From Patescibacteria group bacterium (GTDB lineage Bacteria > Patescibacteriota > Minisyncoccia > UBA6257 > GWB1-50-10), in the NCBI GenBank assembly GCA_038065455.1, contig JBBTQX010000002.1, positions 6,779 through 70,778 on the forward strand: a stretch of 64,000 bases of DNA, given 5' to 3'. A model generated the notes under the pieces. It worked only from the letters and a program-made list of their open reading frames with translations, did no database searches and was not told where the DNA came from. Positions 147 to 42,248 of this stretch are shown one piece after another. Position 1 is the stretch's first letter, and each line of letters begins with the position of its first letter. The translations under genes were made by a program, and so were the position numbers.

Positions 147-971
147 CTACTTCCCGATGTCAAACGAAGGGAAATTCGCCTCCTGGGGATAAAATACCTC
201 CCCTTCCGAAACCGCTTTTCCTTCGATGATTTCCCTGGCCAATCTCTCATAGGCCAAAGCACCGGGACTCTGGGGTGCGTAAAGCATAATGGGCTTTTGA
301 AAACTGGGCGCCTCGGCCAAGCTTACCGAGCGCGGAATCTCGACTTCGAAGACTTTGTAGGGGAAACGTTTGCGCACTTCTCGCGCGATTTCCCGCGAGA
401 GCCTTTCCCGCTTGTCATACATCGTAAGAAGCGCGCTCACGGATTTTATTTCGTGTCCCAGATTATTTTTCACCAAGTCCACGCTCTCCAGAAGCTGACT
501 CAAGCCTTCCAGGCTGTAATATTCGCACTGGACGGGCACGAGCACCTCGTCGGCGGAAGCCAAGCCGTTCACCGTCAAGAGATTCAAGCTCGGTCCCAGG
601 TCAATGAGAATAAATTCATAATTATTTCTAATTTTTTCTATGAAGTTTTTTAGATACCATTCCCGGTCCGGCAGATTCACGAGCTCCACGAGCGCCCCGG
701 CCAAATCCGGCGAGGCCGGAATCATCTGGAGATTCGAGAGATAGGTGTCCTTAATCGCCCGCTCCGGCGCCTGGCCGGCCAGAAGGATATGGTAAATGGT
801 TTCATCCGGCGCCCGCTGAATGCCGAGGCCGACCGTCGCGTTGTATTGCGGGTCGAAATCGATTAGAAGCGTCTTCCGCCCCGTCATCGCCAAATAAGCG
901 GAGAGATTCATCGCCGTGGTCGTCTTTCCAACGCCGCCTTTGGCATTGTAAATGCAAATTACTCTGGCCAT
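147..971 (-). CDS. parA: ParA/Soj-family partition ATPase
   Basis: ORF 147..1052 trimmed to Met28 (cat at 969-971). MARVICIYNAKGGVGKTT is the deviant Walker A of ParA/MinD ATPases. The longer start would overlap the tRNA. Confidence 0.85.
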   Translation of the reverse strand: MARVICIYNAKGGVGKTTTAMNLSAYLAMTGRKTLLIDFDPQYNATVGLGIQRAPDETIYHILLAGQAPERAIKDTYLSNLQMIPASPDLAGALVELVNLPDREWYLKNFIEKIRNNYEFILIDLGPSLNLLTVNGLASADEVLVPVQCEYYSLEGLSQLLESVDLVKNNLGHEIKSVSALLTMYDKRERLSREIAREVRKRFPYKVFEVEIPRSVSLAEAPSFQKPIMLYAPQSPGALAYERLAREIIEGKAVSEGEVFYPQEANFPSFDIGK

Positions 972-1014
972 TATGTTGATTTTAGTGTAAAAAAATCGTA
1001 TTATCAAATAAATT

Positions 1015-1101
1015 GCCTGGGTGGCGGAATTTGGTTTACGCGTAGCACTCAAAATGCTATGGCCTTCACTGGCCGTGTGGGTTCGAGTCCCACCTCAGGC
1101 A
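1015..1101 (+). tRNA. tRNA-Leu (anticodon CAA), class II
   Basis: Hand-folded cloverleaf: 7-bp acceptor stem (one G-U), anticodon stem tagca/tgcta, loop cuCAAaa, long variable arm, T-loop ttcgagt. No encoded CCA. Confidence 0.9.
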
Positions 1102-1288
1102 CACATGAGAGGATATTTCAGAACCTCAAAGGTAAATAAATAATAATAAAAAATAATTGGCCTATATAATCGGCCTTTCATTGGGCGATGGCAACCTTTT
1201 TTCTTGTATTGTATCTGCCATGCTGATTGCCATATATCCGAGCATATCCCGCATGGTGCCAAATGTCCTTGCACATTACCGATTTCAC

Positions 1289-1317
1289 TTGACAGTAAGG
1301 TTATATTCTGCTATATT
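1289..1317 (+). promoter_or_regulatory. sigma70-type promoter
   Basis: TTGACA (1289-1294), 17-nt spacer, TATATT (1312-1317), upstream of the 66-aa ORF. Confidence 0.6.
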
Positions 1318-1394
1318 TAAAACACTCTTAAAATGATTGGGAGTCCGGGCTACGAAGGTTTCGTGGCAAATTTGTATCTTGAAAGGAGGATCCT

Positions 1395-1595
1395 ATGGAT
1401 CCCAAACGACAGGGCGAGATCGCTCTCAAACTGGTGAAGCAACTCATGCGCAAGCGTGGCATCCAACTCTCGCAGGACAACATGCGCGAGTTCGGAAATG
1501 TCGCGAAGGCAATTGAGGTGCCTGTCGAGGAGCTGAAGCAGTTCGCCAAGCCCCTCATGCAGGAATTCCTCGACGAGTGCTTCTCCGCCAAGTAG
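1395..1595 (+). CDS. hypothetical small protein (66 aa, helical, acidic C-terminus)
   Basis: ATG preceded by aaGGAGGatcct. Third codon positions are G/C-rich, unlike the neighbours. No family recognised. Confidence 0.55.
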   Translation: MDPKRQGEIALKLVKQLMRKRGIQLSQDNMREFGNVAKAIEVPVEELKQFAKPLMQEFLDECFSAK

Positions 1596-1708
1596 TAGTC
1601 GGGAAACTAGGGTGGAGCTTCTAGTTCCCTAAAAGGGTAATTGCACCTCGCCGTCACAAGCGGACAAGGGCAGAACAAGAACCTAACCCCATTTTCCGGC
1701 AATACAAC

Positions 1709-1743
1709 CCCACTATCCTTTAAAATAGTGGGACTTTTTTTAT
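1709..1743 (+). terminator. rho-independent terminator candidate
   Basis: Stem cccactat/atagtggg (8 bp), 8-nt loop, then a T-run. Confidence 0.55.
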
Positions 1744-1745
1744 TA

Positions 1746-2033
1746 TCAGTCGGGCTTCAACCATACATCATTCCCGGACCCATTATATTGCACCTTCTTT
1801 TTTAAGGATGGAAATCTTCCTGTTCTCGCCCCGATTATACCCGCGCCCAGCTTTCCGTTCGAGCGGATGACGCGGTGGCAAGGAATTTTCGGATTATAGT
1901 TGCCATTCAGGATATTCCCGACGGCCCGATAGGCCTTCGGCCGGCCCGCGAGCTTCGCGACGGCCTTATACGTCAGAACCTCGCCTTTCGGAATTTTTCC
2001 GACGATTCGAAGAACTTTTTCTTTGAATTCCAT
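1746..2033 (-). CDS. MGMT-family methylated-DNA-protein-cysteine methyltransferase, short DNA-binding/active-site domain form
   Basis: PCHRV active-site motif in a 95-aa protein. Confidence 0.8.
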   Translation of the reverse strand: MEFKEKVLRIVGKIPKGEVLTYKAVAKLAGRPKAYRAVGNILNGNYNPKIPCHRVIRSNGKLGAGIIGARTGRFPSLKKKVQYNGSGNDVWLKPD

Positions 2034-2254
2034 ATGTCGTCTATTTCAAATATTTTTTCTTTCGACATCGCGCCCCCGGCGAGCGCTATGTTTATCTTGG
2101 ATATCCCCAAAAATTCGGAAAGCGCGTCCGCAACCGCCTTGTTCGCCTTCCCTTCCTTAGGTGGCGCATTCACGCTCACCTTGTAGTGGGTTTCGTCGAG
2201 TTTTTCGACTTTTTCGTTTTTGGCGTTGGCTTTTACCGATACATATATTTTCAT
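1973..2254 (-). CDS. DUF167/YggU-like protein
   Basis: MKIYVSVKANAKNEKV...YKVSVNAPPKEGKANK pattern typical of YggU. The 3' end overlaps the MGMT gene by 61 nt. Confidence 0.6.
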   Translation of the reverse strand: MKIYVSVKANAKNEKVEKLDETHYKVSVNAPPKEGKANKAVADALSEFLGISKINIALAGGAMSKEKIFEIDDIWNSKKKFFESSEKFRKARF

Positions 2255-2296
2255 AAATTTAATTTTAAGTTTTAAATTTTAATTTAATGTTCAAAT

Positions 2297-3145
2297 TTAA
2301 GAAAAATAACTTTTTAAAATCTTAATGTTTCTTTTATCGGGACCGTTATTATCAAACCCGGGCACCTCCAAGAGCCACGCCTTGTCCCAAAGGCGCTTTT
2401 CCTTCGCGAGCGCTTTGAATCCCGGAAGGCCGACATAGCCTTCGCCGATATTTTCATGCCGGTCGTTGTGCGAATTCCAGAGGGTTTTGGAGTCATTTGC
2501 GTGAATGGCAACGACATTCTCCAAACCGATTTCCTTATCCACCCTGTCCGCGAATGCCTTAATATTTCCCGCGTCATATTTGACGATTCCCGATTCAAAA
2601 GCGTGGGCGGTATCCAAACAGATTTTTACGCGCTTCGAGCCGATTTTTTTGAAGATAAACGCGAGCTCTTCGATGGTTTTTCCGATTTTCTCTCCCCCGC
2701 CGGCGGTATTTTCCATCACGAGAAAACTTTTGCCCGGAACATTCGCCAAGACTTTTTTCATTCCGGATATCGCCTGATTCAGCGATTTTTCCTTATCCAT
2801 TCCAGTACTCGAGCCGATATGGAAGATAAGCCCGGCCGCCCCGATAAGTTCGGCGATTTTCAGATGATCCGACAGGTTTCTGATTGATTTCGAAACCAGC
2901 TCCGGATTCGGACTGCCGAGATTCACCAGATACGAGGCGTGGAGATAAGCCGGGCCGATGCCGGTTCTTTTTCCCTCCTCTTTGAATTTATTTATTTCAT
3001 CCTCATTCGGCAGCTTTGTCTGCCAGGTGCGAGGCGAGGCGCCGAAAATCTGAATGCAATCCGCGCCGATTTCTTTGGCGCGCCCGAAGGCCGTCCAAAG
3101 CCCGCCGGCGGTAGAAACATGCGCTCCGATTTTAGGCTTAGTCAT
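2297..3145 (-). CDS. nfo: endonuclease IV (AP endonuclease family 2)
   Basis: 282 aa. Conserved blocks GAHVS, IFGASPR, HASYLVNL, HIGS, ENTAG, CLDTAH. Confidence 0.9.
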   Translation of the reverse strand: MTKPKIGAHVSTAGGLWTAFGRAKEIGADCIQIFGASPRTWQTKLPNEDEINKFKEEGKRTGIGPAYLHASYLVNLGSPNPELVSKSIRNLSDHLKIAELIGAAGLIFHIGSSTGMDKEKSLNQAISGMKKVLANVPGKSFLVMENTAGGGEKIGKTIEELAFIFKKIGSKRVKICLDTAHAFESGIVKYDAGNIKAFADRVDKEIGLENVVAIHANDSKTLWNSHNDRHENIGEGYVGLPGFKALAKEKRLWDKAWLLEVPGFDNNGPDKRNIKILKSYFS

Positions 3146-3173
3146 TATTTAAATATAACATGGGCCCTAAAAT

Positions 3174-3258
3174 AAAAGGATCAGACGAATTAAAAAAGTG
3201 GGTAAGACTTGGCCTAGCGGCCCGGAGCGCACACTTTTTTGGTTCGGCTGATCCTTTT
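3174..3258. repeat. long imperfect inverted repeat (hairpin) between nfo and truB
   Basis: aaaaggatcagacgaa (3174-3189) pairs with ttcggctgatcctttt (3243-3258) at 15/16. Inner arms aaaaaagtg / cactttttt. Confidence 0.6.
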
Positions 3259-4273
3259 AAGATATAGCACTTCCGGGAGGGACTTCCCTGTCTGGTTTCA
3301 ATAATACCGGCCCGCCGTCATTGGCCGCCAGGAGCATTCCTTGGCTCTCCAGACCCATCATCATTCGCGGCTCCAGATTCGCAACAACGATTATCTCGCG
3401 GCCAACCATCTCTTCCGGCAAGTAAACCTTCCCGACACCGGCTAGAATTTGTCGCGGTTCCGGTTCGCCTAAGTCCACTTTTAGCTTCAAAAGCTTTTCG
3501 GAACCTTCCACGCGTTCGGCCTCAAGCACTCTCGCGACCTTCATTTCTATCTTTTTAAATTCATCAAAATTTATGTTCATATTATTATATTTTTGTACCT
3601 CAGTGCTACAATTGATTGTAGCATCGGACTTTACGAGCTTCTCCAATTGAACGAGACTCAGGGATTCTTTTTCCGTAAAATCCCCCACTCTCGTCCTTTT
3701 GAGCGCCGCGAGATACGCGCCGGTTCCCAATTCTTTTCCGATATCGCGGGCCAAAGCCCTTACATAAACTCCTGGACCGGTCACGGCACGCAGTTCTAAA
3801 TAAGGCCACTCGTATTCCAAAATCTCAATCTCTTTTATCTCAGCTTCTCTTTCCAATAATACCGGCTTCTCGCCTTTTCTGGCAAATTTATAAGCTTCCT
3901 TACCACTCACCTTGATAGCGCTGTAAATGGGCGGAATCTGCTTGATTTTGCCGATGAATTTTTTTACCGCTTCTTTGATTTCCGAAAGAGCCGGCTTTCT
4001 GTCCGACACGGAGGTTTTCTCCCCCTCCTCGTCGTCCGTGGCGCTCGTCTCGCCCAATTTAATCTTGGCGAGATATTCTTTTTCTTTCTTCACTTCAATG
4101 CCCAATTTTTTCGTAGCTTCGCGGCCGACGCCCACGACAAGCACGCCTTCGGCCAAAGGATCGAGCGTTCCGGCATGGCCGACCTTCTCGCCTCCGGTAA
4201 TCCTCTTTATGCTCTGAACAATATCATTCGAGGTTGGGCCTTTCGGTTTATAGATAGCGAAGATTCCTTTCAT
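3257..4273 (-). CDS. truB: tRNA pseudouridine-55 synthase TruB fused to a C-terminal CsaA/Trbp111-like tRNA-binding (OB) domain
   Basis: N-terminus GHAGTLDPLAEGVL (catalytic Asp motif). The C-terminal ~110 aa (KIEMKVARVLEAERVEGSEKLLKLKVDLG...) resembles EMAP/CsaA tRNA-binding domains. Confidence 0.8.
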   Translation of the reverse strand: MKGIFAIYKPKGPTSNDIVQSIKRITGGEKVGHAGTLDPLAEGVLVVGVGREATKKLGIEVKKEKEYLAKIKLGETSATDDEEGEKTSVSDRKPALSEIKEAVKKFIGKIKQIPPIYSAIKVSGKEAYKFARKGEKPVLLEREAEIKEIEILEYEWPYLELRAVTGPGVYVRALARDIGKELGTGAYLAALKRTRVGDFTEKESLSLVQLEKLVKSDATINCSTEVQKYNNMNINFDEFKKIEMKVARVLEAERVEGSEKLLKLKVDLGEPEPRQILAGVGKVYLPEEMVGREIIVVANLEPRMMMGLESQGMLLAANDGGPVLLKPDREVPPGSAIS

Positions 4274-8390: not shown

Positions 8391-8864
8391 TGACAATTTC
8401 ACCCTGACGGGTTTTATGACTTTATTGTGCAACTTGTATCCTCCCGATACCTCTTCCGCTATCGTTCCCGGCGGCTCCGCGGCATTCACTTCGCCTATCG
8501 CTTCCGCCAGATTAGTATCGAAAGGGTCGCCGCGCTGAATTTTGATTCTTTCGAGGCCGTGTTTTTTCAAAATATCCTCGAGCTGACTCCTGATCAGCTC
8601 CACTCCTTTCTTCGCCGGATCGCCGTCCTTCAAGACCGAGAGGCTCAATTCGAAGCTATCCAAAGCGGGAATAAGGTCGGCTATGAGCATTTCATTCGAG
8701 AACTTGGCAAAGTTTTCCAGACGCCCCGCTTCTTCTTTTTTGTAATTAATCAGGTCGGCTTTCGCCCGCTTCCACCCGTTCAGATACTCCTCTTTTTCCC
8801 TTTCCAGTTTCGCAATCGGGTCTTCCGGAATATTATTATTATTTAAATCTTGTTCTTCGGACAT
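8379..8864 (-). CDS. grpE: nucleotide exchange factor GrpE
   Basis: 161 aa, GrpE-like coiled-coil plus beta domain. Sits between hrcA and dnaK. Confidence 0.9.
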   Translation of the reverse strand: MSEEQDLNNNNIPEDPIAKLEREKEEYLNGWKRAKADLINYKKEEAGRLENFAKFSNEMLIADLIPALDSFELSLSVLKDGDPAKKGVELIRSQLEDILKKHGLERIKIQRGDPFDTNLAEAIGEVNAAEPPGTIAEEVSGGYKLHNKVIKPVRVKLSTGQ

Positions 8865-30381: not shown

Positions 30382-30750
30382 TTAAAAAATATCAGAGACT
30401 CTAGTCAGTGCAAGCCGATTCATGACTTCATCGTCATAGTTATCCATATGGACACAGATGCAAAGTAAGACGATAACGGCGCCTTTTACTGCGAACCACA
30501 TTCGGGGATACTGATTGGGTCTTAAATTATCATTAGGAACAACGAGTTCTACTTTCCATAAGGTCCAGATATCATTCTGCGTTACCCTGTGTAATTTTGC
30601 CGGGGCTATTATTTGCTTCGGATTCTCCGGATTGAATTGAAATTCGCACAACCTCTTGAATGAATCTAAACCGTCTTTAAGATGACGAAATCGCCGCTCA
30701 AGGGCGGCGATTTCTTTTTCTATGCCGTCATGATACAGAAATTCAATCAT
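30382..30750 (-). CDS. RelE/ParE-superfamily-like toxin candidate
   Basis: 122 aa. LWKVELVV......YPRMWFAVKGAVIVLLCICVHMDNY matches the RelE-type beta core pattern. 4-nt overlap with the upstream antitoxin. Confidence 0.55.
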   Translation of the reverse strand: MIEFLYHDGIEKEIAALERRFRHLKDGLDSFKRLCEFQFNPENPKQIIAPAKLHRVTQNDIWTLWKVELVVPNDNLRPNQYPRMWFAVKGAVIVLLCICVHMDNYDDEVMNRLALTRVSDIF

Positions 30751-31238
30751 AGGTCGCTGAAATCCGTACCGCGATAGAACGCGAGTTCATATGAAATATC
30801 CTCTCCCGGCTTCGTCCCAACATATGGGGCCTCAGCATGGGAAAGTTCGCCAAGCTGTTTTCCATTCAATTGGCCGTATTTTATGGCAACGCGATCAAGC
30901 ATTCTTCTTTCTTCGATATCTAATATTAATTCATCCGGTTCCGCCAAAGAACTGTAAACCTCAATTGGATTATATCCATTTCCCAATTCGACGGCTTTGG
31001 CAAGAAGTATTTTTTTCTCGGACATTTCCGATATAATTTTCTCAAAAGAGACTGGTACTGGCCCCATAGGAAGGGCTTTATATGTATCCCCAGTTATAGG
31101 TTTCTGATTCTTTTCGAAGAAATCAAAATCAGCAAAATAAAGGAGTTTTGCTAGTTTTTTCTTCCCTTGGATTTCACCTCCTAATTTCTTACAGAGATAT
31201 AGTATAACTTGCTGATATTTCTTCTTTTGGAGGGTCAT
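30747..31238 (-). CDS. DUF4065 (Panacea/SocA-like) antitoxin-domain protein
   Basis: 163 aa. KKLAKLLYFADFDFF....PITGDTYKALPMGPVP is characteristic of DUF4065. Confidence 0.7.
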   Translation of the reverse strand: MTLQKKKYQQVILYLCKKLGGEIQGKKKLAKLLYFADFDFFEKNQKPITGDTYKALPMGPVPVSFEKIISEMSEKKILLAKAVELGNGYNPIEVYSSLAEPDELILDIEERRMLDRVAIKYGQLNGKQLGELSHAEAPYVGTKPGEDISYELAFYRGTDFSDL

Positions 31239-35673: not shown

Positions 35674-35702
35674 ATTTTAGACAAATACAGATTTTTTGTC
35701 AA
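35674..35702 (-). promoter_or_regulatory. candidate infA promoter
   Basis: Minus strand: TTGACA, 17 nt, TAAAAT, 15 nt, ATG. Confidence 0.55.
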
Positions 35703-35817
35703 TTTTTTAATCTATAAATCGTCTTTAATATCAGTTGTGGATAACTATTGACGCTTATTCATGTAAGTCGTTATAATGATAATACAGAATAACTTCTGTC
35801 CTGCCCGTGGATATGGG

Positions 35818-36510
35818 TTAACTTTCCGCAAGACCTGATTCTCTTGAGTCAGGTTTTTGCTTTTTAACCGCAATATACTTTTTTATGTCTTGAGCATTGA
35901 TTTTATTATCAACTAGCTCTCCTAACGACGCATCAATATGCCCTCCTTTTATTAAAATTATCTTTTTCTTTTGTTTCTTTAAGAAACGGATAAGAGCGGC
36001 GAAATCGGCATCGGACGATAATAGACAGAACGTATCATATGAATTGATGAGTCTTACGGAATCAACTGAAACCTCCACGTCAAAATTGCACTTCGGAATC
36101 AATATAAAATTCCCTCCCTTATCAACATTTATCTTCCGCATTGTCTCGCTTTTTTCTTCGGAATCCAGATAATGCTTGATTTGCTGTATTGGTTTAGTGA
36201 AAACCCTAGACTTACCGAAAATATGTTCCGCGGCCCGTTTGAATCTTAAAGACCCTGGATTAACAGGGTCGTGTCCATAATAAAAACGATCATCGCTGGA
36301 AAACGCGCTCAAGAAATCTTTTAATTTTTGCAGACCAATCGTTAACAACTCATTATCTGCCATTTTCACTCCGCTCTCATCAAAATCATCTTCATCAAAC
36401 CAATGATTGACGTTCGCAAAATCAATGAATGAGATAATGTTCGGATACCTGTCCGGTAAGATATCAAGATTTTTTCTTATTTGATCTTTTTTAAGTTCTT
36501 CCAAATCCAT
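35818..36510 (-). CDS. NYN (LabA/DUF88-like) nuclease-domain protein
   Basis: ISFIDFANVNHWF and LLSSDADFAALIRFLKKQKKKIILI match NYN-domain acidic motifs. The ATG at 36510 has an AAGGAG SD inside the upstream gene and lies 1 nt after its stop. Confidence 0.7.
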   Translation of the reverse strand: MDLEELKKDQIRKNLDILPDRYPNIISFIDFANVNHWFDEDDFDESGVKMADNELLTIGLQKLKDFLSAFSSDDRFYYGHDPVNPGSLRFKRAAEHIFGKSRVFTKPIQQIKHYLDSEEKSETMRKINVDKGGNFILIPKCNFDVEVSVDSVRLINSYDTFCLLSSDADFAALIRFLKKQKKKIILIKGGHIDASLGELVDNKINAQDIKKYIAVKKQKPDSRESGLAES

Positions 36511-36511
36511 T

Positions 36512-39364
36512 TTAATTTTCTCCTTCAACTGTTTTTATTTCTTCCTCCGTTAAGCCGTAGAGCTTATATACCTCCTCATCAATTTTCTTGTCGGTTCTTC
36601 CTATTTCGGATTTCAGTCGTTCCCATTCGTTGGAATTTTCCTCGACGTCGTGAAATTCTTTATTAAGAAGGATTATCTTATCAACATAAGAAATTATTAA
36701 TTTCTGCGATGCCTCGTCTGCAATATAAATTGGTAGATCTAATAGTGGCTCCTTATCTATTTGTAGTTGATCACCCTGTAATTTCCCCTTATTTCTTAAC
36801 CAGAAATGCATGATGTTTGAATTGAGTAATCCAAGAACATATTTGAGATTCACTTTATCCAATTTTAAAATTATAAAAGCTCTTGTAACATAACAAGGAA
36901 AATCAACATATGAAAAGGATGGTTTTATGGTTTTCCTTATTGAAAAAATACAGTGGCCCTCAAAAAATCTTTCTTCGCGTGCCCTATGAAGACCATAGGG
37001 AGCATACACAGAAGTTAAAATTTTAGAAAATTTATCTAGGTGTTTTTTGAGATTAGGAAACTGTTCAATATGTTCCCGGAAATAACTGTCCGCATAAATT
37101 ATACGGAGGCTTGTGTTTTTAATAGATAAGTATCTATTTATTTCTTTTGTTGTATAGTACGGTCTTAAATATTGATCTTCAGGTTTTGTTGGTGAAAGTT
37201 CTTTAATTTCGTCCTCAGATAAAATAAATATGCCATCGCCTTTCTTTATTGTTTTATCTGACAAACCCTGTAGGTGCTTTTCAGTGATAAAATCTTGCAA
37301 AACATCAATGCCATTACCGACATCTTTTTCGTTAATGTGGTAATTCTGTTTTGATTTTATCTTTTCTAGGAGAATGTCTTTATTGCTCTCGGTAAAAATT
37401 AAAAAGTGGCCCAGTAATTTTTCTGGTTTAATCTCAATTTCGGTTTTTTCACCAAAAATTCTGGAAATAAGTTCGTTTTCCGCTATATTCCTATCGGGAA
37501 TCCTTAAATAACTTACCTTGTATTTTTCATCTGGTTTTCCTTTTTTAAAGGTAAAAATCATTGTTTGAATCCCAGCTTGTTCAAAAACCTTATAGTCACC
37601 AAAATCTAGGAAGGATTTTAGTTCGCCATCTTTTAAAATTTTATCTCTAAAAATATCTGCGCCGGCATTGCTTACCCAATTATTCGGAGCGATAAAACTC
37701 AAAATTCCCCCGTCTTTAAGTAAATCTATTGAAATGCACGCAAACATTGTCCAAATATCCATTTTACCCTGATAATATGGGCTATCGTGCAGACCATTAA
37801 AAGCTTCTTTATTCACAAACTCCTTGATATACGGCGGGTTTCCGATAATCACATCAAACCCGCCTTGTTTGAAAACCTCCGGAAATTCCTCTTCCCAGTT
37901 AAACGGCTTCTTATTGCGAAAATTTGCACCAAAATGCTTTTTAAGTTCCGAGTCGGTGCCCGAAATGAGCGAGTTTCCATTCTTTATATTTTTATCGAGC
38001 GATGGCAGCTTCTGCCTTTCATTTAAAGCGCCTACAAGAAGATTTAATCTGGCGATTTCAACCGCTTGCTCGTCCAGATCAACCCCATAGATATTCTCTA
38101 AAAGTATTTGGATTTTTGTGAAAACATTCCCTGGTGCGCCCATTTTCTTGTATTTTTCATTGATAAGTTCCAACGCCTGAACAAGAAACGAACCGGAACC
38201 ACAGGCCGGGTCCAGTACCTTTATCTTCTTCAAATCCTCTATAGTGTTGCACTTTTCCAAAACCGGCCCCAAGGCGTTTTTCACGATATACTCAACGATA
38301 AAATGGGGCGTGTAATAAATCCCCTGCTCCTTGCGCTTCTTAGCATCCTTATGAACTTCTACGCCCTTCTTTGATTGAGAAAGTTTATAGCCGAGATAGT
38401 TTTCATAAACTGTTCCTAGAACATCAGCGGGCATCGCCTTGAAATCATATTCATAATAGCCCGGTTTGCCGTAGAGAATCTGAATAACTTTCTCCGTGGC
38501 GTCGCCATATTCCTCCCATTCTTCAAACGGGTGTTCGGAAAAAAGATTGGAATTGTAGGTTTTATCCAATTCCCTGAATTTATCCACCATGTGCTTGTAA
38601 AGCGGCACCTCGTTTTGGTCTTTGCGATTTTTCCATTCACGAAGCAATGGGATAAGCGTTGGCGGTTCAATTCCTCTATCCTCGGCAACACGTAAAAAGA
38701 TAAGTCTGTCCAAAAGCTTTTGAACGCCTTCATCTAAAAATTGGGGGGCAATTTTAGAATTCCAAGCCTTCAACGATTTAGTAAGAATCTCCCGACATTC
38801 GTTCAGGTCGTTGAATAACAGCGAAGTTACCGGAATTTTCTGGAATTTCTTTCCGAATTTTTCTGCCTCTGTATCGATAAGATTTTTCTCGAATGATTCT
38901 CTTGATAAGAGCGAAAGTTGGTCAAAACATTCAATATATCTATCGTAGGAAATTTCAAAGAGAAGTTTGGCGGCCAATGTCGCTTTCGCATCCTGCGTGT
39001 TGAAAACTTTTATACTCTCAAAGTCGGTAAGCACTGCCCAAGTTACGCCCTTATTCCAAGAATATCTTATTGCTTGTTTGGCATATTCTTCGCGATGCAA
39101 ATCCACCTTAAGTGATTTGGCCTCTAAATAGAATTTCGCCCGGCCATTTAAATAAAATCCGTAATCAACTCTATCCGAGGATGATAAATTTTCTTCCGCT
39201 GAAACCTCATTTTTGTTATGGACATCCCACCCAAGCGCTTCAAAAATCGGCAGAATAAAATCTTTTTTTGTTTCCTCTTCCGTATAACTCTTTATCTTGC
39301 CGGCCGATTTAGCAATTTCATACTTATCAATAAGCAACCTTATCTTCTCTTTCGGGTCATTCAT
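36512..39364 (-). CDS. type IIG (fused endonuclease-N6-adenine methyltransferase-specificity) restriction-modification enzyme, Eco57I/MmeI-like
   Basis: N-terminal PD-(D/E)xK-like D...EAK (VDYGFYL...FYLEAKS), SAM motif VLDPACGSGSFLV, catalytic NPPY (IIGNPPYIKE), C-terminal TRD-like region. 950 aa. Confidence 0.85.
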   Translation of the reverse strand: MNDPKEKIRLLIDKYEIAKSAGKIKSYTEEETKKDFILPIFEALGWDVHNKNEVSAEENLSSSDRVDYGFYLNGRAKFYLEAKSLKVDLHREEYAKQAIRYSWNKGVTWAVLTDFESIKVFNTQDAKATLAAKLLFEISYDRYIECFDQLSLLSRESFEKNLIDTEAEKFGKKFQKIPVTSLLFNDLNECREILTKSLKAWNSKIAPQFLDEGVQKLLDRLIFLRVAEDRGIEPPTLIPLLREWKNRKDQNEVPLYKHMVDKFRELDKTYNSNLFSEHPFEEWEEYGDATEKVIQILYGKPGYYEYDFKAMPADVLGTVYENYLGYKLSQSKKGVEVHKDAKKRKEQGIYYTPHFIVEYIVKNALGPVLEKCNTIEDLKKIKVLDPACGSGSFLVQALELINEKYKKMGAPGNVFTKIQILLENIYGVDLDEQAVEIARLNLLVGALNERQKLPSLDKNIKNGNSLISGTDSELKKHFGANFRNKKPFNWEEEFPEVFKQGGFDVIIGNPPYIKEFVNKEAFNGLHDSPYYQGKMDIWTMFACISIDLLKDGGILSFIAPNNWVSNAGADIFRDKILKDGELKSFLDFGDYKVFEQAGIQTMIFTFKKGKPDEKYKVSYLRIPDRNIAENELISRIFGEKTEIEIKPEKLLGHFLIFTESNKDILLEKIKSKQNYHINEKDVGNGIDVLQDFITEKHLQGLSDKTIKKGDGIFILSEDEIKELSPTKPEDQYLRPYYTTKEINRYLSIKNTSLRIIYADSYFREHIEQFPNLKKHLDKFSKILTSVYAPYGLHRAREERFFEGHCIFSIRKTIKPSFSYVDFPCYVTRAFIILKLDKVNLKYVLGLLNSNIMHFWLRNKGKLQGDQLQIDKEPLLDLPIYIADEASQKLIISYVDKIILLNKEFHDVEENSNEWERLKSEIGRTDKKIDEEVYKLYGLTEEEIKTVEGEN

Positions 39365-39370
39365 CTTATT

Positions 39371-41107
39371 TTATTCCGCCAGAATCTTTACCTTGTTCAA
39401 ATAATTGGGAACGGATTTTACCCAGAAAGGCCAGAAAGAAATGTTGGCTTTTTGGAGGCCCGGCAGAGCGAAAATTTGTGTTTTGAGCGTTTCGCCGTCG
39501 AGGCCGAGAATCTGATTTTTGAAACTTTCCAAATTTATCTTCGGTTCGTAGGTAAGGACGCCGTTCACCGAAAAAGTCATCTTGCCGGCGGCGAAATCCG
39601 CGGTACTCGTCGAATAGTCCATCGAGAAATTCCTGACCGTAATCTCCTCGGTCGATGTACTCAAAAAATCCACCAGAGCATCTCGGAGCATTCCCTCGTT
39701 GAAACCCAGTTGGCGCAACTCCCCTGCCACGAGGACGCTGAAATTGCCGTCCTGGTCGACTTGGCTCGAAACATTCTCGCTCGTCACTTTGAATTCCGAA
39801 CCGTTATCCATTATTTTCAAATTCTGCGAATCCAAAATCATCGTTTTGCTTTTAAGCGTATTCAAAAGCGCTTCTTCTATTTTCGCCTTCGCGCCGCTCA
39901 CATCGCTTTCGGAAGGAACGATCTGATTGCCTTCCGCTCCGCCCGTCATCGAGGATATTGATTCGGCATAGAATCCTTTATAGAGCGCCGGCGTCGCCTT
40001 GAAGCCCGGTATCTTCCATCCTCCACTCGGGGGCAAGTTGTAATCCGAACCCGCCTTATCCGCCACGACTTTCACCTCGACGGATGACGGCGTTCCATTC
40101 GCGGTTTTCATTCCCGGTACCACGGCCCTATTCACCAATCTGAAAATTTTTCCTTCCGGAGATTCAAAACGGGTAGTCGCTACGAGCGTCTGGGACTTGG
40201 TGCTATAGACGTTATAAACGGTAAGCGTTCCGCCAGCCTTGGTACTCAAGGTGGAGCTGCCGGTTGCGGGAAAATTCATACTTAGATTCCCGGGCGCCAC
40301 CGAAAGCTGGCCGGGCAGACTCGCCGCGTTGCCGCTCACGGAAGGAGTATTCACCTCTTTATCCGCCGTTACCCGAATGGAAAACGGAACAGTAGTTTTT
40401 TGTATGAAAATGTTGATTATTGCTCTGGGCAGAATGTCCGCCACCGCGAAATATCCCGCCGCCAAAACGACGGCCGTGCTGACGAGCATTATCGCCCAGA
40501 ATTTTTTTCCGCGCTTCGCTTTCTTTTCGACATTCCTTTCAATCCTTTCGAAATTCTTTTCGATTCTTTCTTCCACTATCGGAGCCGGAATGTATTTCAC
40601 CAATTCCTCTTCCGACGCGACGGGCTCCGTAATCGGAATTTTGGTTTCTTCGATTGCCGGGGCTTTTTTCTTTCTCGCGACTCTCGGCTTTTTCACCCCG
40701 GACTTCCTCGCCGGTTTTCGTCCCTCGATTTTTTCCTTCCCTCCGCGTTCCGCGTTCGGGACTTCGCTTTGCCTGACCAATTCTATTTCGGCCGCACCGA
40801 CATCATCCAATCCCGGCAAAATATCCACCACAGATCTTTCCCTGGTTTTGAAAACCGGATTTATGGCCGGAATAGTCGCCAAGGACGCCAATTCCAGAAT
40901 ACGCTCGTCCACCGATTCTATCGCCAATTCCTTGCCGGCCGTTTCACACTCGCGCTCCAGTATTTGGAAATTATGGACCGAGGAACCCAGAACGGAGTTT
41001 TTGGGAATATTGAGAATGATTTTTTCCGCCTCGACGGCAGTCAGCTGGCCGACTACTTTGTTCAAGTCGTCGTCTTTGTCCAAAAATATCTTTTTTTCCG
41101 ATGCCAT
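39371..41107 (-). CDS. hypothetical bitopic membrane protein (cytoplasmic K/E-rich N-terminus, one TM, large S/T-rich ectodomain)
   Basis: 578 aa. TM at FWAIMLVSTAVVLAAGYFAV. No family recognised. Confidence 0.6.
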   Translation of the reverse strand: MASEKKIFLDKDDDLNKVVGQLTAVEAEKIILNIPKNSVLGSSVHNFQILERECETAGKELAIESVDERILELASLATIPAINPVFKTRERSVVDILPGLDDVGAAEIELVRQSEVPNAERGGKEKIEGRKPARKSGVKKPRVARKKKAPAIEETKIPITEPVASEEELVKYIPAPIVEERIEKNFERIERNVEKKAKRGKKFWAIMLVSTAVVLAAGYFAVADILPRAIINIFIQKTTVPFSIRVTADKEVNTPSVSGNAASLPGQLSVAPGNLSMNFPATGSSTLSTKAGGTLTVYNVYSTKSQTLVATTRFESPEGKIFRLVNRAVVPGMKTANGTPSSVEVKVVADKAGSDYNLPPSGGWKIPGFKATPALYKGFYAESISSMTGGAEGNQIVPSESDVSGAKAKIEEALLNTLKSKTMILDSQNLKIMDNGSEFKVTSENVSSQVDQDGNFSVLVAGELRQLGFNEGMLRDALVDFLSTSTEEITVRNFSMDYSTSTADFAAGKMTFSVNGVLTYEPKINLESFKNQILGLDGETLKTQIFALPGLQKANISFWPFWVKSVPNYLNKVKILAE

Positions 41108-41123
41108 TGGCTTTTATTTTAAC

Positions 41124-42248
41124 CTAGAAATTGGGAATCAGCCACTTCACCCGACGCTTTAAAAGCCGGTTTAGATACTCGAATTTCGGAAGATCATATT
41201 CGAAAACCAAAAGAGCTAGGGCATTCTGTTCGATGAGCGGTTCGAAGCCCAAAGCGGCATTTTTTTTCTTTATAATATACTCTTTACGCTCCAATTCCTC
41301 ATCGACCCGGATAGCCGCCCCGGGGAAATTCTTGATCCGGCCGGAAAAATAGATTTTAGGCCGGCTGATTTTTGTTTTTTTCTTGAGCGGCTCCAAAAGA
41401 CCGGCGAGCTCCCGAACGCTTTCGTTCACTCTTCCTTCCAGCCATTTTTTTACCTTGACCGAAACATTGTTTTCGAAATAAAGGCGGATTATCGCTCTGG
41501 CCGAGGCTTCGTCTATGCCCAGTTCGGCGGCTACTCCGCCGGTAAAAGTCCCCGTCCCCCAGCCATAACCGACTTCAAAGGCTTTTTCGTTTCCGTGGAC
41601 TTTGAAAACCGAGGTGGCGGTCTCGCCGATCTGAACCGAAAAGCTCCCGGATTCGGGAAGGAAGTCCCCCAAAACGCTCGCGCTTTCGAAGACGAATATC
41701 TTGCCCCAGTCTTTGAAGCGTTCCAGAGAAGGCAAAGTTTCGCGCGGAACGAATGTGCCTCGGATTTTCAAATTCAATTCTTTTCCTTCAAAGCCGACCG
41801 GGTTATACATTTTGTGAGTTCCAATGGAAACATCGCGTACCTGGACATAAGCCATAATCAAATCCGAGTCGCTCGTCTTCATTTTTTTGGCCGCCATCGC
41901 CCGATAGCGATTCAGAAAATCCCAAAATCCTTTGTGGACCAGTTGGTCCATTTCGCTTTCGGTTATCGCTTCATTGGGTTTCGGGCGCTTCAAAACCACG
42001 GTATTTTCCGCGGTCGTGGCTCTTTCGCTTCCGAGTGAAAAAATTATGTAGTCCGTCTTCTTGGTAGGCCGCCTCACGCCATCCAAATCCTTCACCGCGT
42101 ACCCTTCGCAAATCGTGATTTCTTTCTTCTTCAGATTCCGATAGGCTCGCGTAACCTCATACGCGCCGTTCCATTCCTCCACCAGAAGGAAATATTCCCG
42201 GCTGCCGTTCCAAAAATTCTGAACGAAATTCCACGTTTTCCAGACCAT
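41124..42248 (-). CDS. hypothetical protein (possibly an ASKHA/actin-fold, FtsA/PilM-like; tentative)
   Basis: 374 aa. Weak phosphate-loop-like segments (IIFSLGSERATT, VQIGETATSVF). Paired with the downstream bitopic protein. Confidence 0.45.
   Translation of the reverse strand: MVWKTWNFVQNFWNGSREYFLLVEEWNGAYEVTRAYRNLKKKEITICEGYAVKDLDGVRRPTKKTDYIIFSLGSERATTAENTVVLKRPKPNEAITESEMDQLVHKGFWDFLNRYRAMAAKKMKTSDSDLIMAYVQVRDVSIGTHKMYNPVGFEGKELNLKIRGTFVPRETLPSLERFKDWGKIFVFESASVLGDFLPESGSFSVQIGETATSVFKVHGNEKAFEVGYGWGTGTFTGGVAAELGIDEASARAIIRLYFENNVSVKVKKWLEGRVNESVRELAGLLEPLKKKTKISRPKIYFSGRIKNFPGAAIRVDEELERKEYIIKKKNAALGFEPLIEQNALALLVFEYDLPKFEYLNRLLKRRVKWLIPNF

Follow-up and report, generated by a model that had tools for sequence, protein, structure and literature searches.

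A foreign island upstream of infA in a Patescibacteria genome joins a type IIG restriction-modification gene to a gene for a predicted NYN nuclease

Two AT-rich genes lie upstream of infA in the stretch of Patescibacteria DNA studied here, a window of 64,000 nt. One encodes a fused restriction-modification (RM) enzyme, the other a small NYN-domain protein. What might a second, putative nuclease be doing directly behind a restriction gene? Do the two form a dedicated defence system, or has one simply settled beside the other? A preliminary description of the locus favoured a fixed pair, perhaps a two-pronged module acting on DNA and RNA. We now consider the island, its genes, their relatives and the explanations that these allow.

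The inserted island and its two genes

The island spans positions 35735 to 39370 (about 3.6 kb, no strand assigned) and is defined by empty sites in relatives, nucleotide alignments, GC and GC3 values and a repeat search. A visibly more AT-rich block had been remarked upon from the letters alone. Indeed the GC content is 0.37, compared to 0.484 elsewhere in the window, and no other stretch of the window falls as low. GC3 values are 0.38 for the RM gene and 0.36 for the NYN gene, against 0.59-0.69 for the flanking genes. The left edge falls directly after the stop codon of a conserved 578-aa gene without assigned function (39371 to 41107, minus strand), and the ATG of the RM gene follows 6 nt on. 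The right edge is approximate, placed where the alignment with island-free relatives picks up again just upstream of the infA promoter. The promoter-like site there, TTGACA-17-TAAAAT (35674 to 35702, minus strand), displays 11 of 12 consensus matches, its columns are conserved in the island-free relatives and, being outside the island, it marks the right flank. A search of the island edges gave neither repeats, direct or inverted, nor a tRNA.

Relatives with 84-98% identical flanking proteins carry the gene order alaS, a 374-aa gene, the 578-aa gene and infA, with the last two adjoining one another at sites empty of the island (L099, L102, L103, L105 and L108). Since the 578-aa gene is directly beside infA in these same-flank relatives, the RM and NYN genes represent one insertion. 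The two-gene block is foreign, and its genes came in together as one island of matching composition. The preliminary description had the block inserted in place of map, adk and secY. The insertion stands but the displacement does not, as in the island-free relatives it is the 578-aa gene that neighbours infA. That gene is the ancestral upstream neighbour, and this lineage never had secY, adk and map there. The 28 kb upstream, as far as it was annotated, shows no spc-cluster genes.

The RM gene (36512 to 39364, minus strand) encodes 950 residues and was assigned from Pfam and PADLOC matches and from motifs invariant in 15 homologues. An N-terminal PD-(D/E)xK nuclease, a gamma-class N6-adenine methyltransferase and a TaqI_C-like specificity domain follow one another. 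The Pfam matches are to HSDR_N (7e-10, residues 27-59 and 29-129), Eco57I (7e-42) and N6_Mtase (3e-24), both within residues 341-619, and TaqI_C (1e-6, residues 735-879). The PADLOC model REase_MTase_IIG matches end-to-end (8e-103, residues 4-948). Strictly conserved in the 15 homologues are the nuclease residues Asp67, Glu81 and Lys83 (the latter two as Glu81-Ala-Lys83), the SAM-binding motif I, DPACGSGSF (385-393), and motif IV, NPPY (509-512). Nuclease, methyltransferase and specificity parts, all proposed at the outset, are thus each intact by domains and motifs, and the protein is apparently an active single-chain type IIG enzyme, as judged from sequence. Enzymes of this type recognise an asymmetric site, which they methylate, and in a SAM-dependent reaction they cut the DNA a fixed distance away from it. 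All three components of known type IIG enzymes are present in the canonical order, and the RM enzyme itself is ordinary, with nothing unusual compared to that class. There are over 5000 homologues, many in Patescibacteria, one of which (P0270, from a Patescibacteria metagenome-assembled genome) is 100% identical. In the PDB the sequence comes nearest to the methylases CamA and M.BseCI and to BREX PglX proteins, and there is no close solved structure.

At the junction (36508 to 36525, minus strand) the sequence, read directly, is GTT GAA GGA GAA AAT TAA a ATG. The RM stop codon TAA occupies 36514-36512, a single base at 36511 acts as spacer and the NYN ATG is at 36510-36508. The ribosome-binding motif AAGGAG (36525-36520) is placed within the RM gene, 9 nt upstream of that ATG. 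The one-base gap and the embedded motif are therefore exactly as first described. With this arrangement the two genes are translationally coupled and probably co-expressed. No promoter-like site belonging to the RM gene was seen and, as the gene starts 6 nt past a stop codon, it is probably read through from the 578-aa gene.

The NYN gene (35818 to 36510, minus strand) encodes 230 residues counted from the ATG, whereas the mechanical list of open reading frames begins at an upstream TTG, position 36528. The protein matches PF01936 with 37.9 bits (cut-off 24.2) over profile positions 49-123 of 145. Six acidic residues, Asp30, Asp144, Glu146, Asp150, Asp167 and Asp169, are invariant in 26 homologues, and Asp144, Asp150 and the Asp167-x-Asp169 pair align to the DWDV, LDA and DGD motifs of the LabA-like protein VPA0982 (PDB code 2QIP). 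The NYN assignment of the preliminary description is borne out; this is a true NYN fold and the catalytic acids are in place. The product is therefore a predicted metal-dependent NYN (PIN-like) nuclease. Identity to solved NYN structures, including VPA0982 and the MARF1 NYN RNase domain (PDB code 5YAA), is 17-18%. Compared to these two, the family represented in the window has an extra N-terminal helix, an inserted beta subdomain (approximately residues 103-140) with invariant FTKPxQ and PKCNFDVE motifs, and a conserved KQKP tail. T5 5'-exonuclease, which acts on DNA, ranks third among the fold matches. There is no match to an ATPase, HEPN or helix-turn-helix (HTH) domain, and no sensor, RNA-binding or evident DNA-binding add-on domain. 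The PADLOC NYN model PDLC01154 matches weakly (2.8e-4) and over the C-terminal 70 residues, so the window protein belongs to another family.

The NYN family and its association with restriction operons

The family is small and patchy, with 40 representatives at 1e-30 and 218 matches among 185,579 species genomes, and is almost restricted to Patescibacteria. Sequence identity is nonetheless 45-60% between distant classes of that group which, in a family so small and patchy, suggests recent horizontal spread. Viral contigs and PHROGs yielded no homologue, and a phage origin was rejected on that basis.

Neighbourhoods were compared at 84 non-redundant loci, each drawn from a different species. 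As genes were called crudely (greedy open reading frames), the counts for RM proximity are approximate, and methyltransferase neighbours were unified with iterative HMMs and Pfam spot checks because BLAST clustering proved too strict. On this basis about 27 of the 84 loci place the NYN gene in or beside a type I, III, II, IIG or ISP system. A methyltransferase gene occupies the position immediately upstream in 14 of 76 NYN loci, compared to 4 of 434 genes that are at least four positions away (odds ratio 24, Fisher p = 1.7e-9). In 19 loci the NYN gene begins no more than 7 nt past the upstream gene and at least 16 of these are RM operons. The junction seen in the window therefore has parallels, with 1-7 nt gaps after methyltransferase or other RM genes at no fewer than 16 further loci. 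No conserved DNA leader, which would mark a recombination cassette, was seen at the methyltransferase-NYN junctions.

The operons themselves vary. Type I systems display the layout hsdM-NYN-(x)-hsdS-(x)-hsdR (L014, L015, L017, L032, L033, L042, L071 and others), type III systems mod-(x)-NYN-res (L012, L041 and L087). Among type II systems a restriction endonuclease gene directly precedes the NYN gene in L084, where it is Mrr-like, and in L088. Associations with IIG, MmeI and ISP types occur in the window and in L007, L004, L008, L027 and L067. In a tree, close NYN relatives partner different RM types, which indicates that the association arose many times. The RM-linked and solo genes are intermixed, and a separate RM-linked clade was rejected. 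We conclude that the NYN family is repeatedly tied to RM operons in general, of types I, III, II, IIG and ISP, usually right after the methyltransferase gene. Literature searches found no published account of NYN genes in Patescibacteria RM operons.

A conserved small partner or antitoxin was also considered and dismissed; an all-against-all comparison of the nearest upstream reading frames returned HsdM, Mod and one close-relative pair only. Genes located between methyltransferase and NYN (180, 184, 238 and 258 aa) are mutually unrelated.

About two thirds of the homologues have no recognised RM neighbour and are mostly accompanied by housekeeping genes (polA, dnaE, smc, uvrA/uvrC, topA, rpoC, cysS, glyA, thrS/dnaE). 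Outside RM operons the NYN gene is mostly alone, with long intergenic gaps. Certain neighbours recur (dnaE, uvrA and H+-PPase, each twice) and site-specific homing was examined as the cause, but this is the level expected by chance in genomes of approximately 800 genes, and the orientations differ.

Is the pairing with the type IIG enzyme fixed, as the preliminary description proposed? The four close homologues of that enzyme examined, all on long contigs, lack a NYN gene. Beyond the window, the IIG family is paired with NYN only in L007, a near-identical strain, and in L027, where the genes are two apart. With the IIG homologues alone and the majority of NYN genes beside unrelated genes, a fixed two-gene system has to be given up. 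Of the two-pronged defence idea, the dedicated IIG-NYN system falls, while the link to restriction holds and extends across RM types. Since the family is repeatedly linked to RM operons, a second prong to restriction stays plausible, and its recurrence inside restriction operons of several types makes the NYN protein probably an optional add-on defence nuclease.

Defence nuclease, homing enzyme, housekeeping gene or regulator

Small nucleases carried by RM operons have precedents. Such operons harbour PrrC and no fewer than 16 HEPN clades (Anantharaman et al. 2013, PMC3710099). The NYN gene resembles the HEPN genes, and prrC of the type Ic hsd operon EcoprrI, in being a small predicted nuclease gene placed within or right after RM genes and probably expressed with them. 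It is likewise optional and has free-standing relatives (RloC in the case of PrrC). The hsdM-NYN-hsdS-hsdR layout mirrors hsdM-hsdS-prrC-hsdR. There are also differences. PrrC consists of an N-terminal ABC-ATPase and a C-terminal HEPN nuclease domain and the window protein has neither; as it presents only a NYN domain it falls outside the PrrC family and the resemblance is one of functional logic. HEPN enzymes are metal-independent, in contrast to the metal-dependent chemistry predicted here, and HEPN genes tend to fuse or link to restriction subunits, whereas NYN follows the methyltransferase gene. PrrC is held inactive by binding its cognate RM complex until phage anti-restriction releases it. 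PrrC has one cognate system but NYN partners types I, III, II, IIG and ISP, and a specific inhibitory contact of the PrrC kind is hard to picture with such unrelated partners.

A second precedent is HEC-09, a NYN (MARF1-like) protein among candidates found by guilt-by-embedding (Payne et al. 2024, bioRxiv 10.1101/2024.01.29.577857). It is embedded in a multi-gene defence system, much as the window protein is, and was proposed as an RNase-based defence candidate, but the systems concerned are Hma and it carries an extra N-terminal HTH-like part absent from the window protein.

By analogy with PrrC in EcoprrI and the HEPN RNases, the most likely role for NYN is that of an optional accessory nuclease built into restriction operons, PrrC-like in logic, here in a probable defence island. 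We give this reading an even chance. On this model a 3.6 kb defence island would have been acquired horizontally between the 578-aa gene and infA of a Patescibacteria (Parcubacteria-type) genome. Its type IIG enzyme would methylate host adenines at the recognition site and cut unmodified incoming DNA. The NYN gene, co-transcribed and translationally coupled with the RM gene, would be an optional mobile cassette, repeatedly built into differing RM operons and also able to stand alone. Its product, made with the restriction complex, may act as a second-line nuclease, attacking nucleic acid of the phage or the host where restriction alone falls short; both the defence function and the substrate are inferred. 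Against this count the two thirds of NYN genes that have no RM neighbour, the four of four close IIG homologues without NYN, the lack of a sensor or ATPase domain, and the observation that HEC-09, the only RM- or Hma-embedded NYN protein tested, gave no defence against the phages used (bioRxiv 10.1101/2024.01.29.577857).

Might the NYN gene instead be selfish, a homing-endonuclease-like DNA nuclease hitch-hiking on mobile RM cassettes with no part in defence? Homing endonucleases are nested in inteins or introns, or present or absent alone at a fixed site, and make a site-specific double-strand cut in the empty allele. When 1.84 billion representatives were searched with a profile, the closest relatives outside the family proved to lie within Intein_splicing/Hint domains. 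There are eight distinct representatives (P0182, P0190, P0193, P0197, P0224, P0259, P0191 and P0215), in which the NYN domain occupies the exact slot where inteins carry a homing endonuclease such as LAGLIDADG or HNH. P0182 shares 34% identity with the window protein over 182 residues, well above the values for the solved NYN structures, and all acidic motifs are common to both. This kinship hints at a DNA rather than an RNA substrate, and the T5 5'-exonuclease fold match is in keeping with it. Like free-standing homing genes, the free-standing NYN genes are patchy and mobile, and they lie squeezed in between other genes. They are also 45-60% identical across distant classes, and many adjoin conserved genes of DNA metabolism, the sort of neighbour that homing elements prefer. 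On the other hand NYN is not a recognised homing-endonuclease fold, the protein has no evident DNA-binding add-on domain and no homologue in viral contigs or PHROGs, and no polymorphism in the presence of NYN alone was demonstrated. The window gene is free-standing, in neither intein nor intron, and was gained together with an RM gene of identical composition. Tight operonic coupling occurs almost solely with RM genes, in at least 16 of 19 cases, the gene being alone with long gaps elsewhere, and the recurrence of dnaE and uvrA neighbours is at chance level with differing orientations. We regard the selfish reading as unlikely. Similarly unlikely is the broader proposal that this NYN clade is an unrecognised class of DNA-cutting mobile endonuclease, serving in one branch as the homing enzyme of inteins in giant Patescibacteria surface-repeat proteins and, in its free-standing branch, as a domesticate or parasite of RM operons of types I, III and IIG.

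A housekeeping nuclease for RNA processing or DNA repair, beside which RM cassettes land (or which lands beside them) without functional link, is less likely again. Most family members are indeed solo among informational genes (thrS/dnaE, cysS, polA, smc, uvrA-uvrC, rpoC), the sequence is highly conserved, and a part in RNA processing has been put forward for NYN/LabA proteins of bacteria from their neighbourhoods (PMC5499597). Yet a family this small and this patchily distributed is far from what a core gene would show, the composition of the window gene is foreign and, since the gene is absent from an island-free close relative, it is dispensable. The 24-fold enrichment after methyltransferases, with 1-7 nt junctions in at least three RM classes and many NYN lineages, is beyond chance adjacency.

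RM systems often carry control elements, and NYN might be a post-transcriptional regulator that trims the operon mRNA to adjust how strongly or when restriction acts relative to modification, or an addiction toxin that kills cells losing the island. A regulator of the RM enzyme had been suggested in the preliminary description, and through the translational coupling NYN dose tracks the methyltransferase-bearing gene. PIN-like toxins have been linked to RM clusters (PMC5499597). We judge this highly improbable. A single-chain IIG enzyme has nuclease and methylase in one polypeptide, which leaves no ratio to tune, and the same NYN occurs in unrelated operon layouts and alone. Clustering of upstream neighbours gave no shared small gene that could serve as antitoxin, and there is no HTH or RNA-binding add-on domain. 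Controller (C) proteins of RM systems are small HTH proteins that bind DNA, and their genes precede or overlap the restriction gene. NYN was rejected for that role, having no HTH match, a downstream gene and a nuclease fold.

Implications for Patescibacteria and for embedded nucleases

Embedding of the PrrC/HEPN type is already known; for the NYN fold in this role and for NYN domains in the intein slot we found no published description, the searches on inteins returning no paper linking the two. Recurrent presence of a NYN fold in type I, III and IIG operons would be new among embedded nucleases, so far dominated by HEPN and PrrC, and at 230 residues the window protein is a compact candidate, tractable in E. 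coli. If the intein-slot domains do cut DNA they would constitute a new homing-endonuclease class, relevant to intein biology and nuclease engineering. Should the whole clade act on DNA, the label 'predicted RNase' would be wrong for it, and RM-NYN pairs would be DNA-DNA two-nuclease modules or selfish piggy-backs rather than a DNA-plus-RNA defence. Patescibacteria are mostly without CRISPR and are thought to rely on restriction-modification for defence. Genes that travel with their restriction operons are, for that reason, a lead to how these cells survive phage.

Island and insertion site

The two genes of the island lie head to tail on the minus strand. The RM gene (39364..36512) is an open reading frame for a type IIG restriction-modification (RM) enzyme of 950 amino acids, and is followed by an open reading frame for an NYN-domain protein of 230 amino acids, counted from the ATG (36510..35818). 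The preliminary description of an AT-rich two-gene block is confirmed. Nowhere in the 64-kb window is the AT content higher than in the island, whose overall GC content is 0.37 against 0.484 for the rest. In 500-nt windows the value falls to 0.31-0.38, with surroundings at roughly 0.44-0.54 (2-kb windows were also computed), and GC at third codon positions is 0.36-0.38 in the island genes compared to 0.59-0.69 in the flanking genes. Direct reading of the sequence shows that the junction had also been described exactly. The RM gene ends ...GTT GAA GGA GAA AAT TAA, a single base follows, then the NYN ATG, and AAGGAG occurs within the RM gene, 9 nt upstream of that ATG.

A metagenome scan using the 578-residue protein encoded upstream of the island as query returned 11 loci. 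One of these, L099, encodes flanking proteins 84-98% identical to those of the window in the order alaS, 374-aa gene, 578-aa gene, infA, rpsM, rpsK, rpsD; 128 nt separate the 578-aa gene from infA. The same two genes directly adjoin each other in loci L102, L103, L105 and L108. Nucleotide alignments set the left edge of the DNA specific to the window directly past the 578-aa stop codon, with the RM ATG 6 nt beyond, and its right edge a short way upstream of the infA promoter, which is conserved. Neither flanking repeats nor a tRNA were found at the island edges. The empty sites in relatives and the aligned edges together indicate that the RM and NYN genes were acquired jointly, as one segment of approximately 3.6 kb. 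The insertion had been thought to stand in place of secY, adk and map in the spc/alpha ribosomal cluster. It does not: with the 578-aa gene adjoining infA in relatives, those genes were never at this position in the lineage, and the genes annotated within the 28 kb upstream include no member of the spc cluster. In two more distant relatives (L100, 8932-10731, and L104, 8884-10665) the slot holds a conserved, cysteine-rich ORF of 593-599 amino acids with multiple CxxC pairs, and the content of the interval separating the 578-aa gene from infA seems to vary within this lineage.

The 578-aa and 374-aa genes themselves (39371-42248, minus strand, between alaS and infA) keep their order across relatives and match no Pfam or NCBIfam family significantly. 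The contig of the closest relative, L098, which like L099 comes from Hainich samples and has flanking proteins 96-99% identical, stops at 8768, 34 nt past the 578-aa gene. This end coincides exactly with the left edge of the island, the pattern that a strain-variable insertion leaves in a metagenome assembly. A further small, somewhat AT-rich block (30382-31238, minus strand, GC about 0.39-0.43) lies just past rpsI. It comprises a gene for a 163-residue SocA/Panacea-domain antitoxin-like protein (3.8e-19) and one for a 122-residue protein, without family match, that overlaps it by 4 nt; the two probably form a toxin-antitoxin pair that was inserted next to the ribosomal genes.

The two proteins

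Four Pfam domains are identified in the first protein: HSDR_N (a PD-(D/E)xK nuclease), Eco57I, N6_Mtase and TaqI_C. The PADLOC type IIG model matches residues 4-948 (8e-103). When the protein is aligned with 14 homologues that are 52-70% identical, no variation is seen in the nuclease triad Asp67, Glu81 and Lys83, in motif I (DPACGSGSF) or in motif IV (NPPY). The enzyme has more than 5000 relatives and is 100% identical to one protein from a Patescibacteria MAG. The closest solved structures, CamA, M.BseCI and BREX PglX, are relatives of the methyltransferase domain only. It is an ordinary type IIG enzyme, and apparently a functional one.

The second protein matches the Pfam NYN profile at 37.9 bits (cut-off 24.2), with the profile covered in the C-terminal half only. 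Alignment of 26 homologues reveals an N-terminal FIDFANVxxW motif in which Asp30 and Asn33 are invariant, together with a further set of invariant residues (Asp144, Glu146, Asp150, Ser165, Asp167 and Asp169). A profile alignment places Asp144, Asp150 and the Asp167-x-Asp169 pair onto acidic residues of PDB entry 2QIP. The catalytic acidic residues, whose loss would have told against the earlier interpretation, are thus present, and the protein has the look of an active nuclease of the metal-dependent kind. AlphaFold2 models it with confidence (pLDDT 88). In comparison with solved NYN domains there are three additions: an N-terminal helix, a beta subdomain (residues 103-140) and a conserved KQKP tail.

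Distribution and gene neighbourhoods of the NYN family

Searching for homologues of the NYN protein yielded 620 proteins from Patescibacteria MAGs, most of them at 52-63% identity. Among 1.84 billion representatives screened with a profile, only 40 matched at ≤1e-30 and 208 at ≤1e-10. Scanning a single genome of each species by pattern confirmed 218 copies, a lower bound because exact motif matches are required. The small family size, patchy spread and high conservation across distant classes are the signature of what would be an accessory, mobile gene.

Neighbourhoods were assembled for 86 loci from annotated contigs, crude ORF calls and iterative HMMs, with Pfam and PADLOC spot checks. RM genes lie within three genes of the NYN gene in about 27 of 84 non-redundant loci. 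Type I systems account for 11, typically in the order hsdM-NYN-(x)-hsdS-(x)-hsdR and often with a Fic/DOC gene upstream; in loci L014, L015, L042 and L071 a gene of this family, encoding some 380-400 residues (for example 4783-5985 in L071), is found just upstream of hsdM, giving the cassette Fic-hsdM-NYN-hsdS-hsdR. Five or six loci carry type III or type II systems whose methylase is of the beta class, among them arrangements such as mod-(x)-NYN-res and methylase plus Mrr-like nuclease followed by NYN. Five have single-chain enzymes of three families: that of the window, MmeI-type and ISP-type. A few loci have their RM genes at a distance of two to four genes, with GmrSD also present in one of them, and in two more loci the defence candidates are of other kinds (PDC-S06 in one, a DRT-like reverse transcriptase in the other). 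In the remainder, roughly two thirds, the neighbours are mostly housekeeping genes (thrS with dnaE, polA, smc, uvrA with uvrC, topA, rpoC, cysS, glyA with thyX, and an H+-PPase gene).

A methyltransferase-bearing gene is immediately upstream of NYN in 14 of 76 loci, compared to 4 of 434 genes at least four positions away (odds ratio 24, Fisher p = 1.7e-9). The NYN start falls within 7 nt of the upstream stop codon in 19 loci, at least 16 of which are RM operons; outside RM operons the gene is usually preceded by its own intergenic region. RM-linked and solo NYNs are mixed together in a neighbour-joining tree and close NYN relatives accompany different RM types, which indicates that the association has formed repeatedly.

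Is the IIG-NYN combination a fixed pair, as had been proposed? Of four close homologues that were examined, 63-67% identical to the IIG enzyme and located on contigs of 18-658 kb, none is followed by an NYN gene. The next gene on the same strand differs each time (L094, 6916-7752; L095, 6904-7422; L096, 7053-7841; L097, 6978-7574), has no Pfam domain, and is related neither to NYN nor to the others. The position right behind this enzyme seems to accept variable cargo in general. In L095 the gene directly upstream of the IIG homologue (617-3964) encodes a ribonucleotide reductase and contains a LAGLIDADG intein. NYN accompanies the enzyme family of the window in two loci only: L007, a near-identical strain with an NYN 92% identical, and L027, where the enzyme is 47% identical and NYN is two genes further on. 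As a specific pair, the IIG enzyme and NYN do not make up a system. Of the earlier interpretation the type IIG enzyme, a real insertion and intact NYN residues stand; the specific pair and the displacement within the ribosomal cluster do not.

Proposed roles: accessory nuclease or homing-type element

The best explanation, to which we assign about an even chance, is that NYN is an accessory, second-line nuclease of RM systems; we infer both its function and its substrate. It would be an optional nuclease cassette, functionally tied to RM in general, co-transcribed and translationally coupled with a methyltransferase-bearing gene, with free-standing forms also occurring. The same pattern of optional RM-embedded and free-standing members is seen with PrrC, which sits within EcoprrI and has the free-standing cousin RloC, and with the HEPN clades, at least 16 of which occur in RM operons and have been interpreted as multi-pronged defence (PMC3710099). 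'Guilt by embedding' makes use of this pattern and has flagged an NYN protein, HEC-09, which showed no defence against the phages tested (bioRxiv 10.1101/2024.01.29.577857). The window protein lacks HEPN and ATPase domains, gives a weak, partial match to the PADLOC NYN model, and belongs to none of these families.

Among the best profile matches outside the family are long proteins in which Pfam puts the NYN domain inside an Intein_splicing/Hint domain (database proteins P0182, P0190, P0191, P0193, P0197, P0215, P0224 and P0259). The intein sequences start C-V-T-G-D-T and end H-N, followed by T, and the hosts are giant GIGTTSP-repeat proteins. Over 182 residues the NYN protein of the window shares 34% identity with one such domain, roughly double the value for any solved NYN domain, and all motifs are common to both. 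NYN domains here take the slot in which the homing endonuclease of inteins sits. A literature search found no paper linking NYN domains with inteins. These relatives suggest that the clade may cut DNA and have a selfish-element history, and they support a reading of the free-standing NYN as a homing-type hitch-hiker. They also lend some weight to the most novel, and likewise improbable, possibility, in which the clade would be a hitherto unrecognised class of mobile endonuclease that cuts DNA. We consider the hitch-hiker reading unlikely. Against it stand the facts that the RM and NYN genes of the window arrived together, that tight coupling of NYN is almost exclusive to RM genes, and that no viral or PHROG relatives were found. 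More broadly, that genes of this Patescibacteria NYN family are embedded time and again in restriction operons has apparently not been described before, and the finding can be put to the test.
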